A DNA stretch of 64,000 nucleotides from Candidatus Latescibacterota bacterium. Lineage in GTDB: Bacteria; Latescibacterota; UBA2968; UBA8231. Under the pieces are notes generated by a model. That model was not told the origin of the DNA and did no database searches. It was given only the letters and a program-made list of their open reading frames with translations. This document shows positions 14,319 through 37,407 of the stretch, piece by piece. Numbering within the stretch: the first letter of the stretch is position 1; each line of letters starts with the position of its first letter. The stretch covers positions 1,184,001 to 1,248,000 of the forward strand of contig OZ242214.1 in assembly GCA_965206595.1 (NCBI GenBank). Reading direction: 5' to 3'. The position numbers and the translations under genes are program-made.

Positions 14319-15251
14319 ATGAGAAAGCCGATCCTGCTCGCAGCAGCGGGCCTTTTCGCCTTCAACTCGGCGACCATAGCCCACGATCCACCGGAATTTT
14401 TGGCTCCGGTCTGGCAGTGGCCGGCTGGCGCCGTGCCGGTACTCGATGCGGACATGTCGGAGTACGACATCGTCCCGAGGGAGTTCTGGCTCCTGTCAGA
14501 GGACCTCATTCAGAACTACGACCAGGCGGAGGCCAGGGTCGCCCAGGGCGAGACGGCCGATCCTGCGAGCTGGGACATGCGTTTCCTCATGAGCTGGAAC
14601 GACGAGACGAACCGCATCTACTTCGCCTACGAAGAATACGACGACTATGAGACTTCCACCCCCCACGACAATTTCGAGTTCGGTCTCGACGCCGACCACT
14701 CGGGGGGCAGCATGTGGTTCGACGGGACGGACGAGGAGAATAATCGCGAGCGGGGCCGCCACGCCCAACCCTTCCACTGGTCCTTCAGCGGGGGTTGTGG
14801 TACTACCCATCGGGGGGTCTTTGGCTGGACTTGGTTCTGGATGACAGAGGCGGACTGGTACGGCGCCCCGAGATATACCGACCACGCGTTCAAGTATACC
14901 GAGGGATCGCCCTGCAGCCTCTCGGAGACCAGGAAGAACGTCGAGTGGTACCAGGTCTTCTGGGACGACTTCAACTGGGCGGATCCCGACGCGCCCCTGC
15001 ACGACTTCGAGGCCGGTGAGATCATAGGCGCGCACCCCCGCCTCAAGGATTTTGATCACAACGAAGAGAATGACGACACTGAGGATGTGCCTCCCGGAAC
15101 GGCAAGCAGGTGGGTGCTCTCGGCGCAAGGCGCCGCGTTCGGCGACGCCGATTTCTGGGCCGATTTTCAGCTCATGGGGGTCGCTGATGACTTCCCCTCC
15201 GCGGTCGAGGAGGACAGCTGGGGCCGGATAAAGGCTTCAGTGGCCAGGTAG
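14319..15251 (+). CDS. Secreted protein, possibly CBM9/DOMON-like, with AVEEDSWGRIK tail
   Basis: AGGAGG RBS; signal peptide; PVLDADMSEY, IYFAYE, DNFEFGLDADHSGG. Confidence 0.8.
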   Translation: MRKPILLAAAGLFAFNSATIAHDPPEFLAPVWQWPAGAVPVLDADMSEYDIVPREFWLLSEDLIQNYDQAEARVAQGETADPASWDMRFLMSWNDETNRIYFAYEEYDDYETSTPHDNFEFGLDADHSGGSMWFDGTDEENNRERGRHAQPFHWSFSGGCGTTHRGVFGWTWFWMTEADWYGAPRYTDHAFKYTEGSPCSLSETRKNVEWYQVFWDDFNWADPDAPLHDFEAGEIIGAHPRLKDFDHNEENDDTEDVPPGTASRWVLSAQGAAFGDADFWADFQLMGVADDFPSAVEEDSWGRIKASVAR

Positions 15252-15273
15252 AACCGCGTCCAACGAACACCAG

Positions 15274-15310
15274 AAATAGGGGGGGGGCTAATCAAGCCTC
15301 CCCTATTTTT
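15274..15310 (+). terminator. Rho-independent terminator
   Basis: aaatagggggggggc...gcctcccctattttt. Confidence 0.7.
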
Positions 15311-16810
15311 ATGTGCGCCATCCCGCTCGGACTTGTCCTCCTCGTCTCCGGCGCTCTCCTCGGTGGCTGCGGGGAGAACGACGCCGAGATGAATCGGCTG
15401 TTGGAGCAGGGAAAGGGTCATTACTGGAAAGGGGAGCACGCCTCGGCGATCGACGTCCTCGAGAGGCTCGCCAGAGATCGACCCGATGACCGGGAAGGCC
15501 ACCTCTATCTCGCCAAGTCCTATCTGTCTCTTGGTCGGCACCAGGAGGCCGAGCGCCAGATCGAGGCGGCCATGGCACTCGCACCCGACGACGCCAGGTT
15601 CTTCGAGCTTCTCGGGATCATCCACACTGCGCGGTTCACTTCGAAACCGTACACCGAGACCTGGCAGCGCCACGGCGAAGACGCCATCGCGGCTTTTCAA
15701 AGAGCGATTGCCCTCGATTCACTGAGGCCCGGTCCCTACTACAACCTCGGCATCATGTACGACTACCTGGACAGCACTCGACTCGCCACCGAGGCCTTTA
15801 TCTCTGCCCTGAGAGCGGACTCCACTGTCGCCCCCGTCCACAAGAAACTCGGCCTCATCTACCGGAATCAGGGTCTTCGGCAGGAAGCGATATCCCCTCT
15901 CGAAAAAGCCGTGCATTACGCTCCCGACGATGCGGAGTCCTACTTCAACCTCGGAATGGCCTACGGCGACATCCGCGATTTCGACAAAGCGGTCGCCAGC
16001 CTCGAAAGAGCGGCTGAACTCAATCCCATAGATCACAAGATCCAACATACTCTGGGCACTATGTACATGCGGCAAGGCCACCAGGAGAAAGGGCGGCGCC
16101 TTGTGGAAAGAGCCAAGCGCATGCGCCAGCTGCTCGGCAGACTCCACGCAGAGGTCACGCCGCCGAGGTACGGAGCCGTCTCACTCGGCTCGGCGAAGGA
16201 TCACTACCACATGGGCCTAGTCCACATGATGGCGGGACGGCTCGATAAGGCCATCGCCGAACTCCGCCAATCCGCCGAGATCGATCGCGACCGCAAGGAC
16301 CCTCAATCGGCGCTGGGCATGGCGCTCCTCGAAAGCGGCAGGGCGGACGAAGCCGTCGTTCCCCTGCAGCGAGCCGTCGAGCTGGATGGGGAGGACCCCA
16401 TCGCGCAGATGCGACTCGGATGGGCCTACCGCGAGCTGGATCGACTTCCCGAGGCGCTGAGGGCTTTCGAGGAGGCGTCCCGTCTCGACACGAGCCTTCC
16501 CGAGGCTTTCTTGAATCGTGCTGACATCCACTTTCGCAGAGGCGATTTTCGAGGATCCATCGGCTTGCTGCGGCGCGCCATCGAGCTGCGCCCGACCTAC
16601 GCCCGGGCTCATCTGAATCTCGGCGCCTCGTACGTGAGGCTGGCCCGGTTCGACAGCGCCGCGGCAGCCTATGAGCGGGTTACGGAGCTGCAACCGGAGA
16701 ACGCCGTGGCTCACCTCTACCTCAGCGATGTGTACGGCACCCTGGGCCGGCCCGACGACAGCGAGCGAATCAAAGAAAGGGCCAGGGAGCTGACACAGCG
16801 GGGGAACTGA
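15311..16810 (+). CDS. TPR-repeat lipoprotein
   Basis: Lipobox LLGGC; many TPR units (YYNLG, YFNLG, HLNLG). Confidence 0.88.
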   Translation: MCAIPLGLVLLVSGALLGGCGENDAEMNRLLEQGKGHYWKGEHASAIDVLERLARDRPDDREGHLYLAKSYLSLGRHQEAERQIEAAMALAPDDARFFELLGIIHTARFTSKPYTETWQRHGEDAIAAFQRAIALDSLRPGPYYNLGIMYDYLDSTRLATEAFISALRADSTVAPVHKKLGLIYRNQGLRQEAISPLEKAVHYAPDDAESYFNLGMAYGDIRDFDKAVASLERAAELNPIDHKIQHTLGTMYMRQGHQEKGRRLVERAKRMRQLLGRLHAEVTPPRYGAVSLGSAKDHYHMGLVHMMAGRLDKAIAELRQSAEIDRDRKDPQSALGMALLESGRADEAVVPLQRAVELDGEDPIAQMRLGWAYRELDRLPEALRAFEEASRLDTSLPEAFLNRADIHFRRGDFRGSIGLLRRAIELRPTYARAHLNLGASYVRLARFDSAAAAYERVTELQPENAVAHLYLSDVYGTLGRPDDSERIKERARELTQRGN

Positions 16811-16888
16811 GGGGCCGTCCGCTTGATCGACGCCTCGGATAGTCATACGTTGCCGTCTTTAATCGACCTTACCTCTTAAGAACGGGGA

Positions 16889-16920: not shown

Positions 16921-16944
16921 TGGTATAGAGGAAATCCTGCGTCG

Positions 16945-19164
16945 ATGTGTAATCCTCTGCTGACAGCGATAGTCAACGTGCGTGCCGGTCTGGTTGCGAC
17001 GTTTCTGGCCGCCTCGATTTCGGCCGCCACGGCGGCCACGGAGCTCCTGGTCATGGGTGGAGTCGACGGCCTTCCGTGGCGCGACGGCGGTGGCCAGGTC
17101 GCGGCCACCGTGATCGTGTCTGACCAGGCGATCGAGCACACGAACACTCCTGGTGGCGTCGTGGACTTCGAGCGCGAGGGGAAAGAGACCTGGATTTTTC
17201 CCTCGGAGGCGGACACGAGTGAGAACATCCTCATCGGTTTCACGTCGGCGTCCAGGGGCGGGAGCGTGGAAACACCGATCCCGTCCTTCGAGATTCTCGA
17301 ACCCGACTTCAGGAACATGCACGACGGCGATGCCAATACGGCCCTCGTCGTCGCGGCGGAGCGTTTCGGAGCATCCGGTGCCAAGGGTCTGATCCTCAAT
17401 TTCGACCTCGGTTCGGTGTTCGCCATCAACCGCATCCGGTTCTCTCCGCGCGCCGCCTTCAGGCGCGACTTCACCAAGGGCTACCAGCTGTTCCTCAACG
17501 ATGGGTCTCCCGAGGCCGTACGGGCTAACAGTCTGATCTGGGACGAAGTGGCAGAAGAAGGGCAGAATGAGGAGGTCGATGTCGACATCCGCTTCGACAC
17601 GAGATTCGTACGCCATATCCGCTTCCGATCCACGGCCCTGCCCACCTTCGAGATCGCCGAGTTCGAGGTGTTCAGCGAGGGGTTTGCGCCACAGGCCCTG
17701 TATCTTTCGGACATCTTCGACTTCGGTGAACCGGCGATCCTCGGAAACCTGCGCTGGGTCCGGGAAAAAATCGGCGACGAGGCCAGGTCTCGGGCTCTGA
17801 TCCGCACCCGGACGGGAATCGATCCCGAACCGGTTGAGTACACCCGCATCGGCGTGCAATCTTCGGGCCGCCAGCTCCGATCGGGCGCCCTCATCACCGA
17901 TGTGCCCATCGATGCCCTGTGGAAGAAGGCCGAGGACGTGGAGGACGCGGACCTGAAGTCGGTGGTGGAAACGCTTCTGGATCACGAATCCCGCGACGGG
18001 CGCGAGGTGTTGCTGGACTTCACCAGTTTGCCGCTGGAGGACCGGCTGCGCCTCGCCCTCGACGAGGACGACTATTTCGACCTCGACGCCGACGAGAGGT
18101 CCGTCATCCGGGACGATCTGACGAACTGGAGCTCGTGGTCGGCGCCCTATCCTCTGGATGGCGTCGTGGACGAAGGCCGGCTCGCGGATCCCCTGGCCGG
18201 AACGCCGGTTGCCTCACCGACGCCGCGACGGTACTTCCAGTTCATGATCCAATTCTTCAACGACAGCTTCAAAGCCGCCACCGGGACCGGGGCCCTTGCC
18301 GTGGACGTGACGAAACCCGCCTTCGCCCAATCACTCATAGCCGAAATCTTCCCGCGCCAAGCCGAGGTCGGCCGGGAGACGGAGTTCACCTACGCCGTCC
18401 TCTACAGATCTGACGGGCGGGATGCCGGGTTCGACCGCTTCGAGGTCAGGACGCCGGTGAGGACTGAGAGCGTCGGCCGGGTCGAGATCTCAGAGCCGGA
18501 TGGAAATGTCACCTTCGCCGACTTCACCGGGCAATCGCTGGCGAATCCACCGGTGACACAGGGGCAGTTCGGCATCGAAGAATCGCGGCAAGACGGGTTC
18601 GTCATCTCCTTCCCCCAGGTGCAGCGGGACAGCACTCTCTTGAAGATCGACTTCAGCAGCGCCGTCCTGCGAGTGGGAACGCGGTTCAGCGGCGGGGCGC
18701 GGAACAGCGCCGACACACTGTTCGCGCATCCGGTGATAGCGGGGAATGCAGCCGATCTGAGCCGTGGACAGCTGGTGGATCCCGACGGGCCTGTCGGCAC
18801 GCTCAAGGAGAGGAACCTCTTCGTGGACGTGCAGGTCGTCGACCAGTTGCTCGTCAATGTCGGCACGGACATCGGCGTCTTCACGCCGAACCAGGACGGC
18901 ATCAACGACACGGTGACCATACAGTACGACGTGACGAACGTCGCGCCGGCGCTCGCAGTAGAGGTGCGGATTTTCGACCTCTCGGGTCGCCTGGTCAGCT
19001 CGCAAACGCAGGGACGCCGCAGCGGCCGCTACCGACACACATGGGACGGACGGAACCAGGCCGGCGAGCTCGTCCCACCCGGCAACTATGTGTACGCCGT
19101 CTCAATGAATGTTCCCGGCTCGGCTGACGCGCAAAGCGCGGGGGTCGTCGGTGTCGCGTATTGA
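16945..19164 (+). CDS. Secreted protein with discoidin-like region and FlgD-Ig/CHU_C-like C-terminal domain (paralog 1)
   Basis: Signal peptide; DGDANT...FDLGSVFAINRIRF; FTPNQDGINDT...IFDLSGRLV...WDGRNQAGELVPPGNY. Confidence 0.85.
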   Translation: MCNPLLTAIVNVRAGLVATFLAASISAATAATELLVMGGVDGLPWRDGGGQVAATVIVSDQAIEHTNTPGGVVDFEREGKETWIFPSEADTSENILIGFTSASRGGSVETPIPSFEILEPDFRNMHDGDANTALVVAAERFGASGAKGLILNFDLGSVFAINRIRFSPRAAFRRDFTKGYQLFLNDGSPEAVRANSLIWDEVAEEGQNEEVDVDIRFDTRFVRHIRFRSTALPTFEIAEFEVFSEGFAPQALYLSDIFDFGEPAILGNLRWVREKIGDEARSRALIRTRTGIDPEPVEYTRIGVQSSGRQLRSGALITDVPIDALWKKAEDVEDADLKSVVETLLDHESRDGREVLLDFTSLPLEDRLRLALDEDDYFDLDADERSVIRDDLTNWSSWSAPYPLDGVVDEGRLADPLAGTPVASPTPRRYFQFMIQFFNDSFKAATGTGALAVDVTKPAFAQSLIAEIFPRQAEVGRETEFTYAVLYRSDGRDAGFDRFEVRTPVRTESVGRVEISEPDGNVTFADFTGQSLANPPVTQGQFGIEESRQDGFVISFPQVQRDSTLLKIDFSSAVLRVGTRFSGGARNSADTLFAHPVIAGNAADLSRGQLVDPDGPVGTLKERNLFVDVQVVDQLLVNVGTDIGVFTPNQDGINDTVTIQYDVTNVAPALAVEVRIFDLSGRLVSSQTQGRRSGRYRHTWDGRNQAGELVPPGNYVYAVSMNVPGSADAQSAGVVGVAY

Positions 19165-21991
19165 CGAACCGCCTGCTGGCAGAGCGATTTTCGCGGCACT
19201 GTTCCTGGGCCTGACGGCCTTGGCGAACGCCCCGGATCTCGACGCCCAGCAGTACGGCGCCCGGCTCGGCGTGCAGGAGGGGGGCGCCATCTCCTTCGAG
19301 CCAAAAGGGTGGGGCGTCCTGTTCGGCGCCCTCGATCCTGTCGTGCGGCGATGGTACGTGCCACAGGAGCTGTACAACGACTACCGGTGGCGGCAATCGG
19401 AATACTCGAACTACGCCCGCCAGTACTATCAGCGCTACGTCGATACCAGGATCAACGGCGACTACTTTTACGATTTCTACGGTGACTACATCGGCTTCGG
19501 TTGGCTGATCTACGACTGGCGGCAGCAACGGCCCTCCTCAGATGGCAGCGGTATTTTCAAGGGCAGGAATTTCGGCAGCTTCTTTACCAACCTCACGGTG
19601 AGCGGCGATTCGCAAGGGCAGTACGGCTATGCCGTCACGGTGGGCACCGAGCTGCGCACCACACTCACGCCCATGACCTTCTCGAAACCGGATTTCAACG
19701 GGGTCCAGATCGACTTCGCGTCGGACCGGTATGCGGCGACGATTCTGGCCTCGCGCATCAGCGACCCGGCCCCTTTTGCCACGACCTCGCCTCTGAGACG
19801 GCGAAACATCACGAGCCTCGTGGGCGGCAGGGCCACGGTCCAGGTCGGAGATCACATCACCCTGGGCGGCACCCTGGTCGATGCCCGCAACGGCAACACC
19901 GCCCTCGAGAGGGGCGACCCGATTGCCGGCAGCCTCACGCTCGGTCAGAGCGGGACGCCGGTGACGGCGATCGCCATCGTCCTGAGCGATGACAGTCCCG
20001 AGGATGGGGAGGGTGGCGCGGCTCTGTTCGGCCACGACGTACAGATCACCGTCAAGGACTTCGACACGGGGCAGGAGACGGTTCACACCCTCGCCGAGGT
20101 GGTGCGGCCGGGAACGGAGTGGCCGGCCGTGGTCGGGGGGTTCGACCGGGAGGGCTATCTCGCCGCCGACGGCACCGAGCGCATAGTCCTGAACTACGAC
20201 TTCACCGATCCCGCCTTCCAACTCCTGCGAGAAGACGGCACCCGGATCGACGCCAGCAACATCATCGAGGTCGAGTTCGAATACGTGCTGGCCAACGACT
20301 ACCGGATCCAGATGTGGTCGAACCGGCAGACCGGCACCGGCGGGGGGGGGGACGTGCCCCAGCCGCCGCTGACTGGTGCCCTCATCGACCAGGCGGAGCC
20401 CGTTCTGTTTACCATCGAGCGGGCGCGGGGCAACGTTGCGCACCTTACCAATGTTCAGGTGGTGAGTTTCCACTACGGTCTGCCCACGGCGAACCTGGTG
20501 GGTGGGTTCACGGTCGAGGCCACGGACTTGCTCGGCTTCGACTTCTACGGCGAGTGGGATCGGAATGTGCGCTATTCGCAGTATCCCAACACCTTTCGCT
20601 TCAGCGCCAACAAAGGGCACGAAATCTCGTCCCGCAGCGCCGAGGCCTCGCTGCTGACGATCTCCAGGCAGGACTACCCTTACTTTGCCTTCGCGGAGCT
20701 CTACTCTATCGACGAGGACTACTCGACGAGCGCGTTCGTCTCCGACAATCAGGGGGACTTCAAGTACGATCAGCCCGTCAGCGTGCTCTACGAATTCGTC
20801 GACGACAACGACGACAACGATCGCCGGGCGGACTGGTCGAGGGCGGGCGGTGGTACGACCGATACGCAGGTCTACCCGGGCTGGGACGAGAACTGGGACT
20901 TCATCTCTGATTTCAACCAGAACGATTCCGGCGCCATTCCGAACAGGATTCCCGACTACGACGAGCCGTTTCTGCGTCACGATGTGGACCGCCCGGAGTT
21001 TCTCTTCGGCATCGATTTGAACAACAATGCCTGGATCGATCGATTCGAGGACGATGACTTACCCGATTACCCGTACAAAGCAGACCGACGGGGCTATAAC
21101 ATCTTCGGGGGAATTCATCTGACGCCCGAGTCCCGGCTGTTCCTGGGCCGAATCGAGGAGGAGATGTTCTCCGACGAGCGCCAGAGCACAGGCACCTACG
21201 CGCTGTTCACTGTCGACAAGGACTACCCGGACCTCGGCCGCGTGCGGGTCTTCGACATGCTCAGACGCGTCGCCGACCGCATCCCCGACGACCGTCGGGC
21301 CTCGGCCTTGTTCAGGGGTGCTCCGCTGCAGCCCCTCGTACCAGACATCCTGCCGGCGCCCGATACGTGGATCAACACGGGCTGGGTCGGCTTCGATTAC
21401 GCAGGGGTCCCGCGACTGAAAATCATCAACAAGCTCAAGCACGAATTCTACAACCAGGAGAAGGGCGCCCGCGACATCGACGGCCGGCCGCTCGACGAGG
21501 TGACCACCTTCTTCGGGCTCGTCAACAAGGTCGAATACCGTCTCGATGCGGCGGGATTGAGTCTGTACCCGAAGCTGAAGAGCGAGTTCCTGTATCAGGA
21601 GGCCTTCGCAGCCGAGGACGACGATCGGCACCACTGGCAGGGCCTGTTCACGCTGATGGCCCGCTTGCCGTTTCTCAGGCGCAGTGAAATCGCCGCCGGG
21701 ATCGAGCTGGCCCGCTTCGCGGAACGCACCGTGGACGAAGAGGCCATGATCGAACAGCGCCTGGCCGGTGAAACCGGGGATCTCCGCTCGGCCGTGTTTG
21801 GCGTTCAGATGTCGAACCGGTCCGAGTATCTCGGCTATCGTCTGACCACTCAGCTTGGCGTCCGAATCACGCGCCTCTCGACAGAACTCATCGAGCTGGC
21901 CCGGACGGATCCGGACATCGTCTTCGCCCGGGAGTGGGAGGGGGAGACGGAGGCCATGAGCTTTTTCACCATTTACGCCGGACTCGAATGA
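19151..21991 (+). CDS. Uncharacterised ~950-aa secreted, putative outer-membrane beta-barrel protein (paralog 1)
   Basis: Signal peptide; Tyr/Trp-rich N-terminus; DDNDDND and GIDLNNNAWIDRFEDD motifs; amphipathic strands; ends FFTIYAGLE. Start approximate. Confidence 0.75.
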   Translation: MSRIDEPPAGRAIFAALFLGLTALANAPDLDAQQYGARLGVQEGGAISFEPKGWGVLFGALDPVVRRWYVPQELYNDYRWRQSEYSNYARQYYQRYVDTRINGDYFYDFYGDYIGFGWLIYDWRQQRPSSDGSGIFKGRNFGSFFTNLTVSGDSQGQYGYAVTVGTELRTTLTPMTFSKPDFNGVQIDFASDRYAATILASRISDPAPFATTSPLRRRNITSLVGGRATVQVGDHITLGGTLVDARNGNTALERGDPIAGSLTLGQSGTPVTAIAIVLSDDSPEDGEGGAALFGHDVQITVKDFDTGQETVHTLAEVVRPGTEWPAVVGGFDREGYLAADGTERIVLNYDFTDPAFQLLREDGTRIDASNIIEVEFEYVLANDYRIQMWSNRQTGTGGGGDVPQPPLTGALIDQAEPVLFTIERARGNVAHLTNVQVVSFHYGLPTANLVGGFTVEATDLLGFDFYGEWDRNVRYSQYPNTFRFSANKGHEISSRSAEASLLTISRQDYPYFAFAELYSIDEDYSTSAFVSDNQGDFKYDQPVSVLYEFVDDNDDNDRRADWSRAGGGTTDTQVYPGWDENWDFISDFNQNDSGAIPNRIPDYDEPFLRHDVDRPEFLFGIDLNNNAWIDRFEDDDLPDYPYKADRRGYNIFGGIHLTPESRLFLGRIEEEMFSDERQSTGTYALFTVDKDYPDLGRVRVFDMLRRVADRIPDDRRASALFRGAPLQPLVPDILPAPDTWINTGWVGFDYAGVPRLKIINKLKHEFYNQEKGARDIDGRPLDEVTTFFGLVNKVEYRLDAAGLSLYPKLKSEFLYQEAFAAEDDDRHHWQGLFTLMARLPFLRRSEIAAGIELARFAERTVDEEAMIEQRLAGETGDLRSAVFGVQMSNRSEYLGYRLTTQLGVRITRLSTELIELARTDPDIVFAREWEGETEAMSFFTIYAGLE

Positions 21992-24906
21992 CGATGGCTG
22001 GCCATCCACGTGCCAGAATTCTCGGGACGAGCGTACTGCTGGCGGCCCTGATTCCCCTCCCCCTGCTCGCTCAAGGGCCGTACGGTTTTCGGATCGGCAA
22101 CCGCGTCGGGGACGAAGTCCTCTACCGTCCCCGGGGGGTGAATATCTACGCAGAGGCCCTCGACCCGACCATCGGTCGCTGGTACCTGCCGGCATCGATG
22201 TTCGGCGAGCGGGGCCGCCGCCAGTGGGAATACACGAACTACGCTTCCGACATCTACAAGCGGTATGTGAGCAGCACACAGGAGGGGGCCTACTTCTACG
22301 ATCAGTACGGCGACCTCATCACGCAGGGGTGGCTGATCTACGACTGGCGCCAGACACAGCCGGCCAGTTCGGGCGGTTCCCAGGTGCTGCAGGATGCGCG
22401 CTACACCAGGTGGTTCGACCGCCTGGTCATCGCCTCCGACGTAAGCGGCGGGCGGGGGTACGCGCTCACCGTTGGGGACGAGATGTTCGCCACTCTCACA
22501 CCCATGACGTTCCGCAAGGCCGGCTTCAACGGACTGGTGGGCAGCTACGCAGCCGACCGTTTCCGCTTCACCGGTGTGCTGTCGAGAATCTCGAACCCCG
22601 CCTTCGGCGGCCTCGTGAGCTTCTCCAATTTTACCAATCTCATGGGCGGCAGGGCGGAGGTGGATGTGGCCGACTTCCTGACGGTGGGCCTGAATTTCAT
22701 CAACAGTCACAACAACAGCGCCACCCGCGACGCCTTCACGGGGAATCCGATGAAGGGGTTCCTCAGCGCCGTGCAGCTGTCCGAGCGGTTGGAGCTTCTC
22801 GTACTGCGGCTGTCCGACGACTCGCCCGAGGACGGCGAAGGCGGAGTCGTCCTCTTCAGCGACGATGTGCAGGTCCACACGACACTCGTGCGCGAGCTGC
22901 CCGATGCGGAGCCTCCCGTCATGGCTCGGATCGATACGGTCATACTGGGCAGCGACATCGGTTTCCAACCCGTCGTGGAGGGTGGCCGGCTGGAGCGCGG
23001 TTTCCTGACGGCGAGCGGAACCGAGGATATCGTGCTCAAGTATCCGCTGGTGGAGCGACCGGAAGCGGATGTGACCGATCTGAGAACACTGCTGATAGAT
23101 CGACTTCGCCTTACACCTGAGGAGGCCGAGGACGCGGTCTCCAACATCAGGGATGTCCGGTTCCGCCTCGTCGTGGCAAACGACTACCGCATCGAGGCGA
23201 CCTCGAACCGGCAGACCGACGACGCTGACGTGCCTCAGTTCCGGCTCGTGACGCGGGCCGAAGGGAACGTGAAGAACGGGCTGAACCGGCAAGAGGTCGT
23301 CTTCGATTACGGCCTGCCGACGGCGAACCAGATCGCGGGGATTTCGACCGAGATCCGCGACTTCCACGGCATCGACTTCTACGGCGAGGCCAACCTCAAC
23401 ACGACCTACCGCAAATACCCCTCGGGCGGGCTCGATAAGCACCGCGCCATCTCCGGCATTCGGGGGGACGAGCACGCCGTCGGCTTCATACTCAACCTGT
23501 CCTGGAGACATGGCCCATGGTCCGTTTTCGCCGAGGGGTTCGGCATGGACGACGATTACACCACGAGCGTGCGTCCTGTGCGAACGGGGGGCCGTACGAA
23601 TTATGATCCAGAGGCCACCAACGTGCTCTACGACTACGTCGACGACAACGACGACAACGACCGGCACCCGGACCAGCTGCGCATCGGCGAGGGCAGTCTC
23701 ATTCCCGATCCGCAGCGGCCGCAGGTGACGATCGAGTCTCGCGGCAGGGCCGATCCCGAAGTCTTTCCGGGTTACGATGAGAACGGCGATTTCATCTCCG
23801 ACTTCAACCAGAACGATATCCCCGGACGGCGGAACTTCTTCCCCGACTACGACGAGCCCTTCCTGCGCTATCACGCCGATCGTCCCCGGTTCCTCGTCGG
23901 GATGGACCTGAACAACAACGGCTGGGCGGAGCGCTTCGAGAACGACGACCAGCCGGACTACCCCTACAAGAAGGACCACTGGGGGCGAAACGTATACGGC
24001 GGTGTCGAGCTCTCTCCGGGAGCGAGATTGAGAGTCGGACAGCTGCGGGAGGAGACCAGGAAAAGCTCACGAGAAAGCGTGGCGACCTACGGACTCGCGA
24101 CCGCCGACGAGGATCGGCCGTGGGGGCGGGTCCGCTTGTTCGACATGCTGAAAAAGGTAGAGGACGACATTCCCGATCACTTGATGCAATGGGTCATCCC
24201 GAGGACGGACTTCGGGCGCGCTGCCACCTCGCGCGGGCGGAACCAGCCGGTGCAGGACCCCCTGGCAGCCGAGGACACCTGGATCAACAGCTTCTACGCC
24301 GACTACCGCTACGACAGCCCCCGCGGCTGGGCGACCTTTCACCGCTTCAAGTGGGAGACCTGGCGTCAGCGTCAGGCTGACGTCGAGGTCACACTCGATG
24401 CCGCCGGCGACACAGTCTCTGTTTTTGATCCCCTCGGTCCGGAGGGACGAAACGGACGGGAGCACTCCGGGTTTACCGGCCTGATCAACAAGGTCGAATA
24501 CGTTCACGACCTCGGACCGATGCAGATCGAGCCGCGATTCAAGAGCGAGTTCCTCAGCGAGACTCCTTTCCGGCGCGATGAGCTCAAACGGCGCTCCTGG
24601 GACGCCATCTTCTTCCTCCAGCTGTCGATGCCGCTGCTCCGCTCGACCCAGCTGCAGGCCGGCTGGGAGCAACGCTTTTTCCACGAACTGATAGAAGACG
24701 AGGACGAACTCGCGGGCCTGTTCAGCGGCGATTTCCGCGGCTCGGTGCTGGCGCTCCAGCTGACGAATCGCAGTGATTACCTGGGCTATCACGTCACGAC
24801 ACAGCTGGGCAGCCGCATCGATCGACGTTCTCTAGAGATCGTCGACGGCGATCGGGACACAGATACCTCCGGTCTGATCTTTCTCACCGTGATGGCGGGC
24901 CTGTAG
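21988..24906 (+). CDS. Uncharacterised putative outer-membrane beta-barrel protein (paralog 2)
   Basis: ATGA overlap with paralog 1; shares ALDP..RWY, GWLIYDWRQ, TLTPMTF, SDDSPEDGEGG, YGLPTAN, DFISDFNQND, PDYDEPFLR. Confidence 0.75.
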   Translation: MTMAGHPRARILGTSVLLAALIPLPLLAQGPYGFRIGNRVGDEVLYRPRGVNIYAEALDPTIGRWYLPASMFGERGRRQWEYTNYASDIYKRYVSSTQEGAYFYDQYGDLITQGWLIYDWRQTQPASSGGSQVLQDARYTRWFDRLVIASDVSGGRGYALTVGDEMFATLTPMTFRKAGFNGLVGSYAADRFRFTGVLSRISNPAFGGLVSFSNFTNLMGGRAEVDVADFLTVGLNFINSHNNSATRDAFTGNPMKGFLSAVQLSERLELLVLRLSDDSPEDGEGGVVLFSDDVQVHTTLVRELPDAEPPVMARIDTVILGSDIGFQPVVEGGRLERGFLTASGTEDIVLKYPLVERPEADVTDLRTLLIDRLRLTPEEAEDAVSNIRDVRFRLVVANDYRIEATSNRQTDDADVPQFRLVTRAEGNVKNGLNRQEVVFDYGLPTANQIAGISTEIRDFHGIDFYGEANLNTTYRKYPSGGLDKHRAISGIRGDEHAVGFILNLSWRHGPWSVFAEGFGMDDDYTTSVRPVRTGGRTNYDPEATNVLYDYVDDNDDNDRHPDQLRIGEGSLIPDPQRPQVTIESRGRADPEVFPGYDENGDFISDFNQNDIPGRRNFFPDYDEPFLRYHADRPRFLVGMDLNNNGWAERFENDDQPDYPYKKDHWGRNVYGGVELSPGARLRVGQLREETRKSSRESVATYGLATADEDRPWGRVRLFDMLKKVEDDIPDHLMQWVIPRTDFGRAATSRGRNQPVQDPLAAEDTWINSFYADYRYDSPRGWATFHRFKWETWRQRQADVEVTLDAAGDTVSVFDPLGPEGRNGREHSGFTGLINKVEYVHDLGPMQIEPRFKSEFLSETPFRRDELKRRSWDAIFFLQLSMPLLRSTQLQAGWEQRFFHELIEDEDELAGLFSGDFRGSVLALQLTNRSDYLGYHVTTQLGSRIDRRSLEIVDGDRDTDTSGLIFLTVMAGL

Positions 24907-26558
24907 TGGCTGGCCGCCGGCTGCTCACCCTGGTCGCCATACTGCACGGACTTGCCGTAGCGGCAAGTTCCGCGTCGGAGAGCAACCCGGTGATCGCCCA
25001 GGTGGGGGCGACGGAAATCACGCTGAGCGACTTGGAGTCGTTTGGCGCCAGCCTGCCGGAGGTCTACAAGGGAGAGGAGCCCGGCGTTTCGTCGGACAGT
25101 CTGTTGCTCGAGAGTCTCATCGACAAGACCGTCCTGCTGCAGCAAGCCAGAGCGATGGGAATCGACGAAGAGCCCTGGTTCGATCCGACGATCTCGCGCT
25201 TTAGAGAGCAGAGAATGCTCATCCTCCACGGACAGCGCGAGATCAACGCCAAGGTCGTCGTCACCGAGCAGGAGATACTGGAGCAATACCGACAGACGCA
25301 ACGCGATCGGGCGCTCCGGTTCGCCGGAATCATGTTGGCGACTCGTGAGGAGGCGCTCGGGGTACTGGCGGAGCTGGAAGAGGGAGCTGACTTCGCCGAT
25401 CTGGCGCGACAGCGCTCGGTCTACGAAGAGACCAGGGACCGGGGTGGAGACAACTTCAAGTACCTGACCAAGGACGCCACCGCGGAGGAGATTAGAGAAG
25501 AGATCTTTCGCCTCGAGGTGGGGGAGCTCTCCGAACCCGTGTCCCTCGCATACAAGGGCGCGAGACACTATGCGATTTTCAAGATACTGGACGAGATGCC
25601 ACTTCCGGTAGCCGAGTCTGAGGATGTGCTGCGGGGAGAGGTCTTTGCTCGAAAACAGCAGGAGCGTGTAGCGGCGGTAAGCGATTCGCTCGTCGAGGCG
25701 TACGCGCCGCAGATCCAGTTCGAAGTCGTTTCCGATCTGCTGCGATCGACCCACTCGACGCCGGGAGACACTGCCGCGGTGGCGGGTATCGACCCGAGCG
25801 TCGTCATCGTCGACTACCGAGGAGGGCAGCTCACGGTCGGAGATCTGCAGAGCATGGCGCCCCAGGGACAGGGATTTGCCGACAGCACCTCCTTCGTAAG
25901 GTATCTTCGAGACCGCGTCATCGTCGATCGACTTCGCCTGGAGGAGGCGCATGCCGCAGGACTGCACCAGGACCCCTCGGTCGTCTCGGCGGTGGAGGCC
26001 GAACGGCAGGACCTGCTCATGAGTACCGTGCGGGATCGGGAAGTGGTCGAGCAGGTGGCGGTCTCACCCGAAGAGGCCAGGGCCTACTACGAAGATCACC
26101 CGGAGCTCTTTCAAACCTTGGACGAGATGGAAGTGATCGAAGTGCTAGTCCCTTCTCCGCAGCTGGCGCGGCAACTGAAGCAAGAGTTGGAACAGGGGGC
26201 GGACCCGGAGGAGCTGGCGACCTCGCACACGTTCCGCAAGGGGCGGGCGCACCACGGAGGTCGGATCAAGCTGGGCACGGTAACGCGCTATCCAGACGTC
26301 TACGAAGCGGCGAAGGAGATGGAGGTCGGCGACATCGGGGGGCCGGTGAAGGTGAAAGACGGATATTCCGTGTTTGTGATCCTCGACCGCAAGTCGCCGG
26401 AGCTCAAGCCGTACCACGATTTTTCCAAGCGTCGCGCCACAGCGTTCGTCACAATGCAGAAAAGATCCCGGGCCTACAAGGACTACGTGCGCCGGTTGCG
26501 GGACAGGTACGGCGTAACGGTCTTCTGGGACGAACTGCAGAAGATCGACAGATCGTAG
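24906..26558 (+). CDS. SurA/PrsA-like peptidyl-prolyl isomerase with two PpiC domains
   Basis: Signal peptide; GADFADLARQRS...GGD, GELSEPV; second GADPEELA...GDIGGPV. Confidence 0.85.
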   Translation: MAGRRLLTLVAILHGLAVAASSASESNPVIAQVGATEITLSDLESFGASLPEVYKGEEPGVSSDSLLLESLIDKTVLLQQARAMGIDEEPWFDPTISRFREQRMLILHGQREINAKVVVTEQEILEQYRQTQRDRALRFAGIMLATREEALGVLAELEEGADFADLARQRSVYEETRDRGGDNFKYLTKDATAEEIREEIFRLEVGELSEPVSLAYKGARHYAIFKILDEMPLPVAESEDVLRGEVFARKQQERVAAVSDSLVEAYAPQIQFEVVSDLLRSTHSTPGDTAAVAGIDPSVVIVDYRGGQLTVGDLQSMAPQGQGFADSTSFVRYLRDRVIVDRLRLEEAHAAGLHQDPSVVSAVEAERQDLLMSTVRDREVVEQVAVSPEEARAYYEDHPELFQTLDEMEVIEVLVPSPQLARQLKQELEQGADPEELATSHTFRKGRAHHGGRIKLGTVTRYPDVYEAAKEMEVGDIGGPVKVKDGYSVFVILDRKSPELKPYHDFSKRRATAFVTMQKRSRAYKDYVRRLRDRYGVTVFWDELQKIDRS

Positions 26559-26563: not shown

Positions 26564-26878
26564 ATGCTCGGACCGCGCTCGTCCACTCCGAGCATGTCTT
26601 CGTCGCGATCCCCCTTCACCTGGAAAGGCCTCCTCGTCGGCTGCCTGCTGTCGCTGTTCGCCGGCGCCCCTGGGTTCATCACCGGCCAGATCTGGCTTTC
26701 TGCCTTCGTCGCCTGGCTCCTGAAGGCCGTTACCCTGCAGTACGGTGGCCCTGGTCTCTTCGCCCAGCTGCGGCCGTTCTTCCCGGGCCTCATCCTGGGA
26801 GAGACGACGACAGGCGGCGTGTGGCTCGTCATCGACGGCATAACCGGCAACTACGGCAATCGCATCACGGCCATGTGA
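26564..26878 (+). pseudogene. Internally deleted DUF6785/DUF6784 membrane protein
   Basis: N-terminus SPFTWKGLLVG and C-terminus LRPFFPGLILGE match the two ends of the 47269..49194 protein; more than 500 aa are missing in frame. Confidence 0.8.
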
Positions 26879-26885
26879 GACACTG

Positions 26886-29727: not shown

Positions 29728-32535
29728 TTGAAGTCTCGCCTGTTCGACATAGTCCTCACTGTGACTGCGCTGTCCTCGGGCGCTGCCGAGGCAGAGGATT
29801 ACGGCTCCCGACTCGGGGTGGCGCGGGGAGGCGATGTGAACTTCCAGCCCAGGGGATCGGGGGTGATGTTCGGCGCTCTGGATCCCACCGTCAGGCGCTG
29901 GTACGTGCCTCAGGAGCTGTATCACGAATACCAGTGGCGACATTGGGAGTACAGCAACTACGCCAGGGTAGGGTACGAGCGCTACGTCGATACCAGGATC
30001 GCGGGAGACTACTTCTACGACAACTTCGGCGATTTCATCAGCTATGGCTGGCTCATTTACGACTGGCGTCAGGACCAGCCCCAGTCGCAGGGCAGCAGTC
30101 TCTACAAGGACCCCAGATTCACCGAGTGGTTCAGCGACCTGACGGTGAGCGGCGACGCCCGCGGTCAGTACGCCTACGCCGTGACCGTTGGGAAAGAGAT
30201 CCGGACTACGCTGACACCGATGACCTTTTCCAAACCGAGGTTCAACGGTGTTCAGGTCGACTTCGCGGCCGACAAGTACGCCGCCACCGTCCTCGCGTCG
30301 CGCATCACTGACCCCGGCATTGTCAGGACCCAGACCCCCTCCGTTGCAAGCAGCCACACCAGTCTCATCGGCGGGCGGGCGACCGTTCAGATCGGCGACT
30401 TCATCACCCTGGGGAGCACCCTGGTTGGCGCCAGGAACTCGAATCCGGCTCTCGACATGTTCGACGGCAATTTCATCGCCGGCAACCTGACGGCTGGCCA
30501 GAGCAGGAAGCCCGTCACCGTGGTCGCTGTCGTCTTGAGCGATGACAGCCCCAAGGACGGCGAGGGAGGGGCAGCGCTCTTCGGCCACGATCTGCGTATC
30601 AGGACCAGGGACTTCGAAACCGGGGAGGAAACCGTCCACACCCTCGCCGAGGTCGTGCGCGCGGGCGCGGAATGGCCTGCCGTGTTCGGGGGATTCGTCA
30701 AGGAGGGGTTCCTGGCGGCCGATGGCGTCGAGCGGATCACCCTGAACTACGACTTCAATGACGCGGCCTACATCGGTCCGGACCTGACGAGCATCATCGC
30801 AGTGGAGTTCGACTACATCCTGGCCAACGACTACAGAATCGACATGTGGTCGAACAGGCAGACCGGCCTGAATGGCGAGGAAGATGTACCCTTGCCGCCT
30901 CTGACGAGTGAAGTCTTCGAGCAGCAATCGCCGGTGCTGCTTCCCGTGGAGCGGGCCGAGGGGAACATCAAGGACATCTCCAACGTGCGGGTCGTGCGCT
31001 TCGAATACGGTCTGCCCACGGCCAACCTGGTGGGCGGATTCACGATCGAGGGCAAGAACCTGCTGGGCTTCGACTTCTACGGCGAGTGGGACCGGAACAT
31101 CAGGTACTCCCAGTACCCCAACGCCTCCCGCTTCGCGGCCAATCGGGGACACGAGATCTCCTCACGCAGCGCCGATGCGGCGCTGCTCTCGGTCTCGAGA
31201 CAGGGCTATCCCTACTTCGCCTACGGCGAGCTCTACTCGGTGGCGGAGGATTACTCCACGAGCGCTTTCGTCTCCGACGATGAGGGGGAATTCCAGTACG
31301 ACGTCCCTGCCAACGCGCTCTACGAGTTCGTCGACGACAACGACGACCAGGACCGCCTCCCCGACTGGGCCCGAGCGGGCGCCTCGTTCGTGGACCCGGA
31401 GATCTTCCCCGGCTGGGACGAGAACAACGACTTCATCTCCGACTTCAACCAGAACGACAACACCTCGGTGCCCAACACGATTCCGGACTACGAGGAGCCC
31501 TTCCTCAGACATCACGTAGATCGGCCCGAATTCCTGTTCGGCATCGACCTGAACAACAACGGCTACATCGACCGCTTCGAAGACGACAATCTGCCCGACT
31601 ACCCCTACAAGGCCGACCGCAAGGGGTACAATGTCTTCGGGGGATCACACCTCACGCCGGATGCGCGCATTTTCGTGGGGCACCTCGATGAGGAGATGTT
31701 CTCCGACGACCGCCGCAACCGGACCACTTACGCCATGTTCACCTACAACAGGGACTTCCCTTCGTGGGGGCGGCTGTGGGTCTTCGACATGCTCAAACGC
31801 GTCGAGGACACGATCCCCGAGGATCGGCGGGCGCCGTCACCTTTTCGAAACGCCCCGATCCAGCCCCTCGTCGAGGACATCCTTCCCGCACCGGAGACGT
31901 GGGTGAACACCGCCTGGCTGGGGCTCGACTACACCGCAGTTCCGCGTCTCGAGATCAACAACAAGCTCAAGTACCGGATCTACAACCAGGCGGCCGACGA
32001 CCCGCGCGACATCGACGGGCGGCCGCTGGAGGACGCATCCGTCCTTTTCGGTCTTATCAACAAGGCTGAGTACGGTCTGCCGCTGGGCAGACTCAGCGTG
32101 ACGCCCAGACTCAAGAGTGAGCTCCTGCTCCAGGACGCGTTTGCCCGAGCAGACGAGCCCCGCGAGCACTGGATGGGGCTGGCGGCGCTCGTGTTCCAGT
32201 TTCCCGTGCTGCGGCGGTCACAGTTCACGGCCGGGCTCGAGCTGGCGCAGTTTCACGATCTCGTCCTCGACGAAGAGGACGTCATCAGGCGGGCCGAGCT
32301 GGGGGAAGCGGTCGAGGTCGGCGAGACCCGGGACTTCCGCTCCGCCACCTTTGCCATCCAGTTGTCGAACCGATCCCAGTACCAGGGATTTCACCTCACC
32401 ACGCAGCTCGGCTTCCGGGTCGGCCGCACCTCGAACGAGTTGATCGAGCGGATTGAGCCGGGCCGGTTCGAGCGAGACAGCGAAGGCTTCACGGAGACGG
32501 TGAGCTTCATCACCCTTTACGCCGGGACCGAGTGA
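29728..32535 (+). CDS. Uncharacterised putative outer-membrane beta-barrel protein (paralog 3)
   Basis: GAGGA RBS before TTG 29728; closely similar to 19151..21991 along its length; ends FITLYAGTE. Confidence 0.78.
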   Translation: MKSRLFDIVLTVTALSSGAAEAEDYGSRLGVARGGDVNFQPRGSGVMFGALDPTVRRWYVPQELYHEYQWRHWEYSNYARVGYERYVDTRIAGDYFYDNFGDFISYGWLIYDWRQDQPQSQGSSLYKDPRFTEWFSDLTVSGDARGQYAYAVTVGKEIRTTLTPMTFSKPRFNGVQVDFAADKYAATVLASRITDPGIVRTQTPSVASSHTSLIGGRATVQIGDFITLGSTLVGARNSNPALDMFDGNFIAGNLTAGQSRKPVTVVAVVLSDDSPKDGEGGAALFGHDLRIRTRDFETGEETVHTLAEVVRAGAEWPAVFGGFVKEGFLAADGVERITLNYDFNDAAYIGPDLTSIIAVEFDYILANDYRIDMWSNRQTGLNGEEDVPLPPLTSEVFEQQSPVLLPVERAEGNIKDISNVRVVRFEYGLPTANLVGGFTIEGKNLLGFDFYGEWDRNIRYSQYPNASRFAANRGHEISSRSADAALLSVSRQGYPYFAYGELYSVAEDYSTSAFVSDDEGEFQYDVPANALYEFVDDNDDQDRLPDWARAGASFVDPEIFPGWDENNDFISDFNQNDNTSVPNTIPDYEEPFLRHHVDRPEFLFGIDLNNNGYIDRFEDDNLPDYPYKADRKGYNVFGGSHLTPDARIFVGHLDEEMFSDDRRNRTTYAMFTYNRDFPSWGRLWVFDMLKRVEDTIPEDRRAPSPFRNAPIQPLVEDILPAPETWVNTAWLGLDYTAVPRLEINNKLKYRIYNQAADDPRDIDGRPLEDASVLFGLINKAEYGLPLGRLSVTPRLKSELLLQDAFARADEPREHWMGLAALVFQFPVLRRSQFTAGLELAQFHDLVLDEEDVIRRAELGEAVEVGETRDFRSATFAIQLSNRSQYQGFHLTTQLGFRVGRTSNELIERIEPGRFERDSEGFTETVSFITLYAGTE

Positions 32536-34672: not shown

Positions 34673-34677
34673 GAGCG

Positions 34678-37407
34678 ATGGCAATGGTGAGACGATTCGC
34701 CGTGAGTGGTTCCCTTCTGCTGGCGTTGACGGTCGGCGCCCACGGCCAGGACGGACACGACATCCGCGCCAATCAGGTCGTCATCTCCGATGAGGAGCAC
34801 TGGCAGCAATGGCGCTTCCCCGAGGGCACGGTGGACGTGCTCCCGGCAGGCGCAGTGGGGCCTCATTTCTGGAGCAAGGGGACGAGCGTCGCCACAGAGC
34901 ACGATATTGTGCAGAACCTTCGCAGGAATCCGCCCGAGTACCTCTCCAGGAAGGCGCCGGAGGAGTTCGAGCTCCTCGACGCCATCGATGCGGGGTCGAA
35001 TCACCGCGCAACGGCGAATCTCTTCGACGGCGACCCGAGCACCTACTGGGAGCCCTCCTTTCCCGATGACGAGACCATCGATCCGGCATCTCAGGCGTGG
35101 TTTACCGTCGATCTGGGCAAGATCGTCATGGCCGAGAAGATCGTGCTCAAGTTCGTGGACGAGGATCTGGGTGACCCCTTCCTTCTATTCGATGTTTTGA
35201 CGTCGGACGGACAGACGCCCACAGCAGCGCAAGGCGCCGAGAGCCTGGAGTTCGCGCGCGTGCACACGACCCTCGAGCCGAACAAGAGCCAGCGCCAGTT
35301 CGAGATCGATATGTCCCAGTTCAGACGCGTCGACACGGTGGAGAGATGGTGGGCCTTCGAGACCTTTGCAGAGCAACAGGGCTGGCACCCCTCGTTTGCT
35401 GAGGTGACACAGGATCCGGAAGTGCGCAAACGCCTGGTTCGCCACGTGCAGGTCGTCGTTTACGGAAGCGCCTTCAGGCGGGGCCGCCAGGTGAGCGAGG
35501 CGATCTACGATTCGGTGCGGGTGAATGCGCCCCGGGATACGGGGATGGTAGAGTACGTGAAGAAGCTCCTACCGAGTGGAGAGCGGGCGGTCTCGAAGGA
35601 CGTGTGGGAGGAGTTGCCGTCTCACCGGCAGGGACCGGTTCGATACTGGCTCCGCGAACGTCCCAGGCTGGCGGAGCTGGAGGTCTGGTCCAAGGGGGAC
35701 GACATCTTCGAGGGCTTCGCGAGAAGATGCCAGGAGCCGCCGTGCCTGACGTGGACGCTTCCCAATGTGCTCAAACCGCCGGCCACGCTCATCGACGGCG
35801 ATCTGTCGAGTCATCAGAACCTCTCCCTTTATATCGGCCAGACCCCTGATTGGTACAACATGCGTGTCGATCTGGGCTCTCTGTTCTGGGTCGACGGCTA
35901 CCGCCACATGATTCAGTTCCGGGGAACGCCGCACGCCCGCACCCTGCCGGAGTGGGGGCTCGACTTCTCCGACGGCACCCGCGAAGTGGACGGCAGTCTG
36001 AAATGGGACAGGAAGCTCTTCGACGAGACGCCTTTCACGCGATCGCGCATCATCGCCCTCGACGAGGTCGACTTCGAGCCGATCAAGGCCCGTTACATGA
36101 GACTGGAATGGCTCATGCACCCGGAGGGCACGGCGGCTCTCACCGTCAACCTGGCGGAGGTCCAGGTCTTCGGGGAGGGCTACCAACCCGAGGTGACACT
36201 TACTTCTGACCTCATCCGGCTGAGAGGGAACCGCAACCTCTTTGCCATCGAGTGGGATGCCGACACACCCCTTGGCACCGAGGTGGCCCTGCAGACGCGG
36301 ACGGGCGCCAGGCTCGATACGGTGTTCCACTACTTCCGCATCGTCGGCGAAGACACCCTCGAGATCGTCAGGGAGACCGAGGAGGAGGCCAAGAAGGCGT
36401 ACGACAAACTCCGGCTCGGAAAAGGGCCGATCGTGCCCGAGCTGGTCGCCGCCGGTGACTGGGAGCCGTGGAGCGAGCCGTACACCGATCCGGAGGGAAG
36501 CGCCATCACCTCGCCCTCGCCGCGGGAGTACCTGCTCGTCAGGGCGACCCTGCGGTCAGACGATCCCCATACTCGAGCTACGCTCAAGAGCATCCGTCTC
36601 AGCTTCGACAGTCCGGTGGCCCGACGGCTGGTCGGCGAGCTGACACCGGGATTGGTCGAGCTCATGGGAGAGGCCCGACCCTACATTCTCGAGGTAGCGG
36701 TCGACAACCTGACAGCCGGATTCGACGAGCTTCTCGTGAGGCCGCCGGCGGGGATGCAGCTCACCTACGGGACGCTCTACGCCGGCGAGGAGCCGGAGCT
36801 GGCCGAGGCGGCCGATATGAGCGGGCTCGCCCTGTCCGGTGTCGAGACGCTGGCCGAAGGGGACAGTCTCCATCTCAGCTTCCCCGCCATCGAGCGCTCC
36901 GACGACGTGGAGAAGATCAGGCTGGAGTTCACCGGCACTCTGTTCTCGGCCGGCGGGCGCCTGCATGCCAGCCTGCGCCGCAGCGAAAGCGGACAGGGGG
37001 CCTGGCAGCGGGTAGACGAGAAGGTTCCCCGCTCCTCTCTCATGGTACTGGCTACGACGCAGAGTAACGATCTGTTCAAGGACTTGACGATCGATCCGCC
37101 GGTCCTGACGCCGAATGGGGACGGCGTGAATGAAGAATTGACCCTGGCCTTCACCGTCCTGCTGGCTGCTCCCAACACGGCGGTCAAAGCGGAGATCTTT
37201 GATCTGAGCGGGCGGCTTGTGGCTCGCCGCGTCGAGGTGCGCGAGGTGAGCGCAGGGCCTCTCGAGATCACCTGGGATGGACGTGACCAGCAGGGAGCAC
37301 TCGTGCCGCCCGGGGTGTATGCCGTGAGGCTCGGCGTCGATGGTGACACCGGTGATACCGCGCTGACCAGCCTGGAGCTCCTGCGCACCATCGCCGTGGC
37401 CTACTGA
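34678..37407 (+). CDS. Secreted discoidin-like + FlgD-Ig/CHU_C-like CTD protein (paralog 3)
   Basis: Signal peptide; LFDGDPSTYW...VDLG; LTPNGDGVNE...IFDLSGRLV...WDGRDQQGALVPPGVY. Confidence 0.85.
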   Translation: MAMVRRFAVSGSLLLALTVGAHGQDGHDIRANQVVISDEEHWQQWRFPEGTVDVLPAGAVGPHFWSKGTSVATEHDIVQNLRRNPPEYLSRKAPEEFELLDAIDAGSNHRATANLFDGDPSTYWEPSFPDDETIDPASQAWFTVDLGKIVMAEKIVLKFVDEDLGDPFLLFDVLTSDGQTPTAAQGAESLEFARVHTTLEPNKSQRQFEIDMSQFRRVDTVERWWAFETFAEQQGWHPSFAEVTQDPEVRKRLVRHVQVVVYGSAFRRGRQVSEAIYDSVRVNAPRDTGMVEYVKKLLPSGERAVSKDVWEELPSHRQGPVRYWLRERPRLAELEVWSKGDDIFEGFARRCQEPPCLTWTLPNVLKPPATLIDGDLSSHQNLSLYIGQTPDWYNMRVDLGSLFWVDGYRHMIQFRGTPHARTLPEWGLDFSDGTREVDGSLKWDRKLFDETPFTRSRIIALDEVDFEPIKARYMRLEWLMHPEGTAALTVNLAEVQVFGEGYQPEVTLTSDLIRLRGNRNLFAIEWDADTPLGTEVALQTRTGARLDTVFHYFRIVGEDTLEIVRETEEEAKKAYDKLRLGKGPIVPELVAAGDWEPWSEPYTDPEGSAITSPSPREYLLVRATLRSDDPHTRATLKSIRLSFDSPVARRLVGELTPGLVELMGEARPYILEVAVDNLTAGFDELLVRPPAGMQLTYGTLYAGEEPELAEAADMSGLALSGVETLAEGDSLHLSFPAIERSDDVEKIRLEFTGTLFSAGGRLHASLRRSESGQGAWQRVDEKVPRSSLMVLATTQSNDLFKDLTIDPPVLTPNGDGVNEELTLAFTVLLAAPNTAVKAEIFDLSGRLVARRVEVREVSAGPLEITWDGRDQQGALVPPGVYAVRLGVDGDTGDTALTSLELLRTIAVAY

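Follow-up and report, generated by a model that had tools for sequence, protein, structure and literature searches.

In Bacteroidota, polysaccharides are taken up by the SusC/SusD(-SusE/F) systems, which work with TonB, ExbB and ExbD, and among TonB-dependent receptors a few motors typically serve many receptors. To our knowledge, TonB-dependent receptors are nearly the sole known case of energised outer-membrane transport, and the biology of type IX secretion (the T9SS) is known almost only from Bacteroidota. The accessible part of PMC9143113 describes PorP-like 14-stranded barrels as the anchors of type B T9SS cargo, and that of PMC4454575 a saccharolytic lifestyle, non-specific porins and TonB-dependent import of B12 and iron; the accessible part of PMC12635249 contains nothing on the phylum Latescibacterota. 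The stretch of DNA analysed here as a whole (the window; 64,000 nucleotides, contig OZ242214.1, positions 1,184,001 to 1,248,000) belongs to a single-contig 7.05-Mb genome of a Candidatus Latescibacterota bacterium (GCA_965206595.1), which is 93% complete; positions below are those of the window unless they are said to be of the genome. At 14319..37407 eleven co-oriented genes of the + strand form a 23-kb cluster, in which three predicted giant outer-membrane barrels (A, B and A') are accompanied by three secreted proteins (P1, P2 and P3). This is a copy of a real, conserved and undescribed envelope system of uncultured Latescibacterota, and our tentative reading, to which we give slightly less than an even chance, is that the cluster represents the outer-membrane, cargo-facing half of a capture and uptake machine energised by ExbB and ExbD. 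No description of such a system was found in the literature on Latescibacterota T9SS or on DUF4159 with ExbD and the outer membrane, most subscription papers being outside the coverage.

The barrels A (19151..21991, 946 amino acids), B (21988..24906, 972 amino acids) and A' (29728..32535, 935 amino acids) are the three paralogs of about 950 residues which the earlier note had suspected to be barrel-like. A and A' (type A) are 64% identical, while B, which represents a second conserved subtype (type B) with its own clade in the tree, is 40% identical to each of them. The AlphaFold2 model of A', built from a 148-row alignment (pLDDT 88.9, pTM 0.86; residues 1-68 not resolved), contains about 24 membrane strands, as counted from the secondary structure, a beta domain of 190 residues (217-406) and an Asp-rich insert of 125 residues (484-608), and the same architecture is attributed to A. 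The alternation of short and long turns, as read from the secondary structure, suggests that both large inserts lie on the outer face. The Asp-rich insert accounts for 14 of the 31 invariant columns of the barrel family and, by analogy, may bind Ca2+. None of the three proteins matched a Pfam or NCBIfam family above the cut-off, and the search of solved-structure sequences with the barrel profile gave nothing meaningful; in the ESM Atlas only unnamed clusters were found, the nearest named family being DUF6029 (0.89, unconfirmed). The best scores in fold comparison (Z 13.7-13.8) came at a root-mean-square deviation (rmsd) of 11-13, the matches were generic (rmsd about 6 or more), and TonB receptors ranked low (Z 9.1-9.5). 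The model supports the assignment of these proteins to outer-membrane barrels of no characterised family, without a close solved relative. The family comprises 458 clusters at 50% identity (E up to 1e-30). In its unrooted FastTree tree the type I barrels, among them A and B, stand apart from type II, which has three position-specific subtypes kept across three loci; A and A' are sisters (SH-like support 82), and A' is, judging from sequence, a recent duplicate of A. Elsewhere in this genome two near-identical type II barrels stand in tandem at 3746753-3752563, a very recent duplication, and the barrel at 6373614 is split over two frames.

The secreted proteins P1 (16945..19164), P2 (32618..34672) and P3 (34678..37407, a longer subtype of 909 amino acids) share 23-30% local identity and all end in TPNxDGxN..FDLSG..WDG..VPPGxY, as had been pointed out previously. 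Pfam places CHU_C/FlgD_ig at their C-termini and a weak F5/8 match elsewhere; CHU_C is above the cut-off in P1 only, where FlgD_ig is too, and in P3 F5_F8_type_C and FlgD_ig are above it. With TIGR04131 two of the proteins score 28.9 and 17.8 bits, short of its cut-off of 35, and P3 is not matched. P1 can be described as an F5/8(CBM32)-like domain, a conserved beta core, an immunoglobulin-like (Ig) domain and a T9SS-type C-terminal domain (CTD) with a terminal Tyr, and P3 as an F5/8-like domain with the same CTD. The AlphaFold2 model of P2 (pLDDT 89.5) is almost all beta, with a CBM32-like domain at 57-250 of the mature protein (Z 14.2, rmsd 2.1 against CBM32), an Ig-like domain at 412-551 and a T9SS CTD fold at 553-657, which superposes on the CTD of PorU (Z 12.4, rmsd 2.3). 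The P proteins matched neither SusD nor any catalytic domain, and P2 had no close match in a viral fold library. The terminal Tyr was found in 37 of the 38 P copies of the genome caught by the motif and in 376 of the 384 complete P open reading frames (ORFs) from the collected loci, whereas all 29 other CTD-like proteins of the genome end in Lys or Arg; this suggests that the Tyr-ended tail defines a separate sorting class.

The P proteins have the features of T9SS cargo: a signal peptide (read by eye), a CTD of the T9SS fold, and a genome with SprA and PorV. SprA, PorU and two PorV-family genes score above their cut-offs, a local profile finds seven strong PorV-like ORFs in the genome, and SprA occurs in 148 of 151 genomes of the phylum. 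The remainder of the check that the earlier note had called for was less informative: GldL, GldM and GldN were not found at E 0.1 in the 93%-complete genome, with controls that held no true positive. PorP (PF11751) was not found in the genome either, with a silent control. An ExbB/ExbD operon containing a PorV-like gene, described below, is a candidate for energising this T9SS. The SprA gene, and likewise a second PorU-like gene, has a barrel/P module no more than about 5 kb away (6656656-6662829 and 5014598-5020123 of the genome).

The co-occurrence of the barrel and P families, anticipated by the earlier note, is confirmed. The 15 barrel loci of the genome contain 33 barrel ORFs; of its 62 P-core ORFs, 27 lie away from any barrel. 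A P gene occurs within 10 kb at 14 of the 15 barrel loci (2.3 expected), a number reached by none of 2000 shuffles, and the pairing is therefore not due to chance. The best paralogs of the WGIK protein (see below), P1, A, A', B, the chaperone, P2 and P3 concentrate in one locus near 3.50-3.53 Mb of the genome (9 of the 11 window genes, the barrels and the second-best match of the S-adenosylmethionine (SAM)-fold gene being counted aside), which makes the window one copy of a repeated module. In other genomes, all 78 GTDB loci, which are the best 78 of at least 639 matches, have a P gene flanking the barrel; so do 75 of 80 metagenome loci, and in the other five the sequence ends just upstream of the barrel. 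Gene order is shuffled among the 78 loci except for P1 before A (74 adjacencies); a B-type barrel was called in 60 of them, with some ambiguous calls, and the P3 type in 53. The named relatives belong to Latescibacterota, to Handelsmanbacteria or to genomes labelled Gemmatimonadota, and one distant cluster has Ignavibacteria members. The supposed fixed 3:3 barrel-cargo stoichiometry did not survive: it is found in only 3 of the 15 loci of the genome, type II loci have one P gene to three or four barrels, and many P genes have no barrel near them.

As to a physical contact between the two families, the complex prediction that had been proposed earlier for barrel-CTD pairs was made with mature P1 (2-600, without the CTD) and residues 216-612 of barrel A. 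It gave a score of 0.58, the best control giving 0.00; at least 73% of the contacts are common to the runs, and the partners have pLDDT of at least 84. The score mark is reached by 116 of 157 solved pairs and by 2 of 215 mismatched ones; among the pairs that reach it, however, only 18 of the 157 solved ones, but both mismatched ones, do so at 0.60 or under. The prediction weakly suggests that P1 docks on barrel A. An insertion in P1 co-occurs with one in barrel A in 123 of 130 pairs, which shared ancestry explains equally well. Inter-protein covariation (mutual information with average product correction, effective depth 18-75) was discarded, as its positive control failed: no hairpin pairs were recovered inside barrel A.

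The link of the module to a motor emerged from a survey of 151 genomes of the phylum, 91 barrel-positive and 60 barrel-negative. A DUF4159 protein with one N-terminal helix (TM-DUF4159) and a motor-linked lipoprotein are each present in 90 of the 91 barrel-positive and in none of the barrel-negative genomes, and exactly the same holds for the strong P core (E under 1e-12); weak P-core matches occur in 36 of the 60 barrel-less genomes, and the two inspected were propeller proteins which share part of the core only. In three distant families (genomes G015, G006 and G003) the genes themselves stand together: P, a small PorV-like barrel (matching PorV_fam below the cut-off, with E 3e-9 to 3e-16), one to three giant barrels, an 1100-residue TPR protein, ExbB and ExbD, followed in G006 by TM-DUF4159 and the lipoprotein; G015 has the lipoprotein as well. 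The three type II loci of the window's own genome retain the TPR, DUF4159 and lipoprotein genes, and of the 13 type I barrel contigs of four deeper genomes seven carry the lipoprotein, TPR1100 or PorV-like gene. The genome also has a stand-alone operon at 221291-228894, encoding the lipoprotein, a PorV-like barrel, a 1081-residue TPR protein, ExbB, ExbD and TM-DUF4159; the wider stretch 215531-228894, flanked by transposase genes, also encodes a curli-CsgG-like lipoprotein and two WGxK-tailed proteins. This stand-alone stretch is a candidate motor for all type I modules, and G009, a single-contig genome with only type I, window-type barrels, keeps the same operon. TM-DUF4159 carries a His in its helix in 14 of 15 copies (near-identical paralogs accounting for 10 of them) and a mostly basic linker, and we take the helix to resemble the TonB helix motif. 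In G003 its gene adjoins 8 of 10 barrel loci and a P gene only one. In G006 and in family f10, whose genomes have few barrels, TM-DUF4159 has multiplied to as many as 13 matches per genome.

These data bear directly on the best of the other explanations, passive display, in which the giant barrels would be PorP/SprF-like shuttles or anchors holding T9SS-exported adhesins or lectins for attachment, and nothing would be imported. The nearly constant position of P1 directly before barrel A, the PorU-like CTD fold with its distinct terminal Tyr and the weakly suggestive P1-barrel A prediction all agree with it, and there is precedent in the accessible parts of PMC9143113 and PMC12618676. However, in the three distant families a real PorV-like barrel stands directly behind P, which also makes the equation of the giant barrel with PorP/SprF, one of the earlier proposals, unlikely; G003 has about 16 barrels with a single P beside them; PorP and PorV are 14-stranded (PMC9143113, accessible part), against about 24 strands here; and the co-occurrence with TM-DUF4159 and the lipoprotein is left unexplained. 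We regard passive display as unlikely. Rather less probable still is traction of the Agl-Glt kind, in which an ExbBD-type motor would pull, via TPR and TonB-like linkers, on a barrel trio with an adhesin in gliding or force-dependent adhesion. In broad terms the parts agree (a TolQR-like motor, TPR, a trio of barrels and an adhesin; PMC11761067, accessible part), the type II lipoprotein has an AgmX/PglI domain at its end (40.4 bits, the cut-off being 40), the three type II barrel subtypes keep their positions across three loci, and the genome search for GldL, GldM and GldN, with its uninformative controls, returned nothing; against this, the barrels match no NCBIfam model, 33 barrel ORFs in 15 loci exceed by far the variety that a single motility machine would require, and no partner with a GltJ/GltG-type cytoplasmic domain was noticed in the loci, no family-level search having been made. 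An energised export or assembly channel, secreting or polymerising P in an usher-like manner or exporting a surface polymer with the peptidyl-prolyl isomerase as a dedicated chaperone, is just as improbable as traction, since the likeness to FimD/PapC ushers, LptD and SlpA is generic like all the fold matches of the barrel, P already has a T9SS-type tail in a genome with SprA, PorU and PorV, and barrel-only loci exist, even though a phage tail protein resembles the split P2 core moderately (Z 10.9), barrel loci show a strong linkage to the chaperone and GT-C enzymes are found nearby.

We favour the uptake machine on account of the co-occurrence with the motor, the separate PorV-like shuttle, the barrel loci without P and the pattern of many receptors and few motors. 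The modelled folds, the gene linkages and the co-occurrence are its directly established part. In this machine A, B and A' would be exported by Sec, chaperoned by the isomerase and put into the outer membrane, possibly as a hetero-oligomer. P1-P3 would cross the outer membrane through SprA by means of their CTDs and be picked up by a PorV-like shuttle of their own, which recognises the Tyr-ended tail. P1 might then form a lid on the extracellular domains of barrel A, with P2, P3 and the CBM9-like protein of the cluster perhaps adding glycan-binding surface. The operon at 221291-228894 would provide the proton-driven force in trans, TM-DUF4159 acting like TonB, as gene linkage and co-occurrence suggest. 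Least certain is the last step, in which this force would open the barrel and a captured oligosaccharide, or another large solute, would be imported.

Several observations weigh against this reading. Within 10 kb of the 78 window-type GTDB loci there is not a single ExbB, ExbD, TM-DUF4159 or PorV-like gene (the lipoprotein is found in 4 of these loci and a TPR1100 match in 1), and thus the motor can be linked to the window only in trans, by inference. The 60 barrel-negative genomes make up four families, and the phylogenetic profile may rest on about two losses. No TonB-receptor Plug was detected in the barrel with Pfam or NCBIfam, whose first 68 residues are not resolved in the model. The Plug model matches 24 other places in the genome (15-36 in barrel-less relatives); the idea that the module replaces TonB receptors was rejected on this normal number of ordinary matches. 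The F5/8-fold DOC and IFT25 domains, with non-sugar roles, score similarly to CBM32 against P2. Finally, the GT-C glycosyltransferases and FG-GAP/ASPIC proteins which recur near the loci fit surface building as well as uptake. On the side of the uptake reading, two barrel contigs adjoin genes of ABC solute-binding proteins.

The co-oriented arrangement with overlapping starts and stops was confirmed in its coordinates: the successive gaps are 59, 134, -14, -4, -1, +5, +7, +271, +82 and +5 bp, and a first block with five junctions overlapping or at most 7 bp apart is separated from the second by the 271-bp gap. The gene order was recovered from an independent DNA run in near-identical contigs of 1.3-5.2 kb, and near-identical pieces of the window are present in three RNA libraries, as contigs only and without a silent control. 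The interval 13200-33000 showed neither a sigma-70 promoter nor an excess of terminators, and the Rfam scan of the window gave no match. The cluster begins with a secreted 310-residue protein with a W-G-x-I-K tail (the WGIK protein, 14319..15251), which has relatives in 62 of the 78 related loci. It has no Pfam match of its own and its profile found nothing meaningful among solved-structure sequences; CBM9_1 is matched by 2 of 45 aligned relatives and by the paralog in the motor operon, and the protein is probably a CBM9/DOMON-like binding protein and a regular module member. Its profile matches 98 ORFs genome-wide, and the tail [ST]W[GAS]x[IVL]K, which ends 75 ORFs, may be a further short sorting signal. 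It is followed by the TPR lipoprotein (15311..16810, 499 amino acids), recognised as such previously and now by many Pfam TPR matches and a lipobox-like LGGC read from the sequence; its relatives occur in 40 of the 78 loci, by a profile that also matches generic TPR proteins.

Behind barrel B lies the periplasmic chaperone (24906..26558), whose two PpiC/parvulin domains (SurA/PrsA-like), as proposed earlier, are two Rotamase stretches in Pfam; it is present in 58 of the 78 loci and in 9 of the 15 barrel loci of the genome (0.9 expected). The next gene (26564..26878) had been called a DUF6785 remnant: according to Pfam and the genome paralogs it is indeed the remnant of such a protein, and corresponds to the DUF6784 C-terminal piece, residues 578-650 of the complete DUF6785+DUF6784 protein. 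DUF6785 occurs in 29 of the 78 loci and in 6 of the 15 barrel loci (2.3 expected, p=0.02); of the earlier suggestion of a SusCD-like importer feeding a DUF6785 transporter, the importer part gains from the ExbBD link, while the DUF6785 part is weak. The membrane SAM-fold enzyme (26886..29456) proved to be a fused MFS/spermidine-synthase-fold protein (MFS_1 and Spermine_synth matches); found in 5 of the 78 loci and 2 of the 15 (p=0.14), it is a loose passenger outside the module core. Taken as a whole, the first reading was partly supported, being right in its architecture, the 3:3 pairing excepted.

Just upstream of the WGIK gene, an 88-bp inverted copy (14205-14292, 95% identity) of the start of mature P1 (17037-17124) is probably a rearrangement scar. 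The interval 13570-13750 has very high read depth in all four sequencing runs, no second genome copy and no Rfam match; its reading frames look like a group II intron fragment. Downstream of P3, a dehydrogenase-like gene and a gene for a 645-residue protein (37556-40720) seem to be duplicated within 50259-58075, with a full-length DUF6785 gene (about 47266-49191) between the copies.

We give about equal odds for and against the broader proposition that this is a new class of proton-driven trans-envelope machine, with hetero-oligomers of barrels of about 24 strands, T9SS-exported lectin caps with their own Tyr-ended signal and shuttle, and an ExbBD drive via DUF4159 as an "alternative TonB"; it would be Sus-like or Glt-like, evolved independently and multiplied to dozens of copies in each Latescibacterota genome, and Ignavibacteria would hold relatives of it. 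That very large barrels and exported proteins of sugar-binding type go together in evolution with a proton-driven inner-membrane motor hints that nutrients may be captured and drawn in by a second, independent route. If this is true, an unrelated giant-barrel family, an ExbBD motor and T9SS-delivered lectins would constitute a second solution to energised outer-membrane transport, DUF4159 would obtain its first role, a third kind of T9SS sorting tail would be recognised, and the 33 barrel and 62 P reading frames spent on one module would be explained. With the parts listed, a laboratory T9SS host could serve to test the idea.

Among the known systems, the proteins at the top of the Foldseek list of the barrel model (SlpA, MtrB, LptD and FimD/PapC) are of similar size, but the TM-score by query is at most 0.27 with 6-12% identity, and none of their partner genes were seen in the loci; from chaperone-usher systems in particular the module differs in that no usher family was matched and the chaperone is a parvulin. 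Agl-Glt of Myxococcus (PMC11761067, accessible part) likewise combines a TolQR/ExbBD-type motor, TPR, an AgmX/PglI domain, paralogous barrels and a surface adhesin, yet no homology of barrels or adhesin was detected, and T9SS delivery of the surface part and the heavy paralog expansion are peculiar to the present system. With T9SS type B (PMC9143113 and PMC12618676, accessible parts) it shares the CTD fold, the TPNxDGxN motif and cargo-barrel linkage, including a PorV-like barrel directly after P in distant relatives; in contrast, the giant barrel does not belong with the 14-stranded FadL-family proteins of about 300 residues and has no match to the PorP/SprF models (PF11751/TIGR03519), TIGR04131 stays below its cut-off, and the tail is Tyr-ended. 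SusC/SusD resembles it in the large barrel beside surface proteins of glycan-binding type, in the many paralogous loci and in ExbB/ExbD with a single-helix linker, here seen as gene linkage and co-occurrence; it differs in that the barrel here has about 24 strands and no Plug match, the partners are T9SS-CTD proteins rather than lipoproteins, and the linker ends in DUF4159 rather than in TonB_C. By analogy, then, our best reading is of a machine SusCD-like in logic and unrelated in parts, with T9SS-delivered lectins as its lids.

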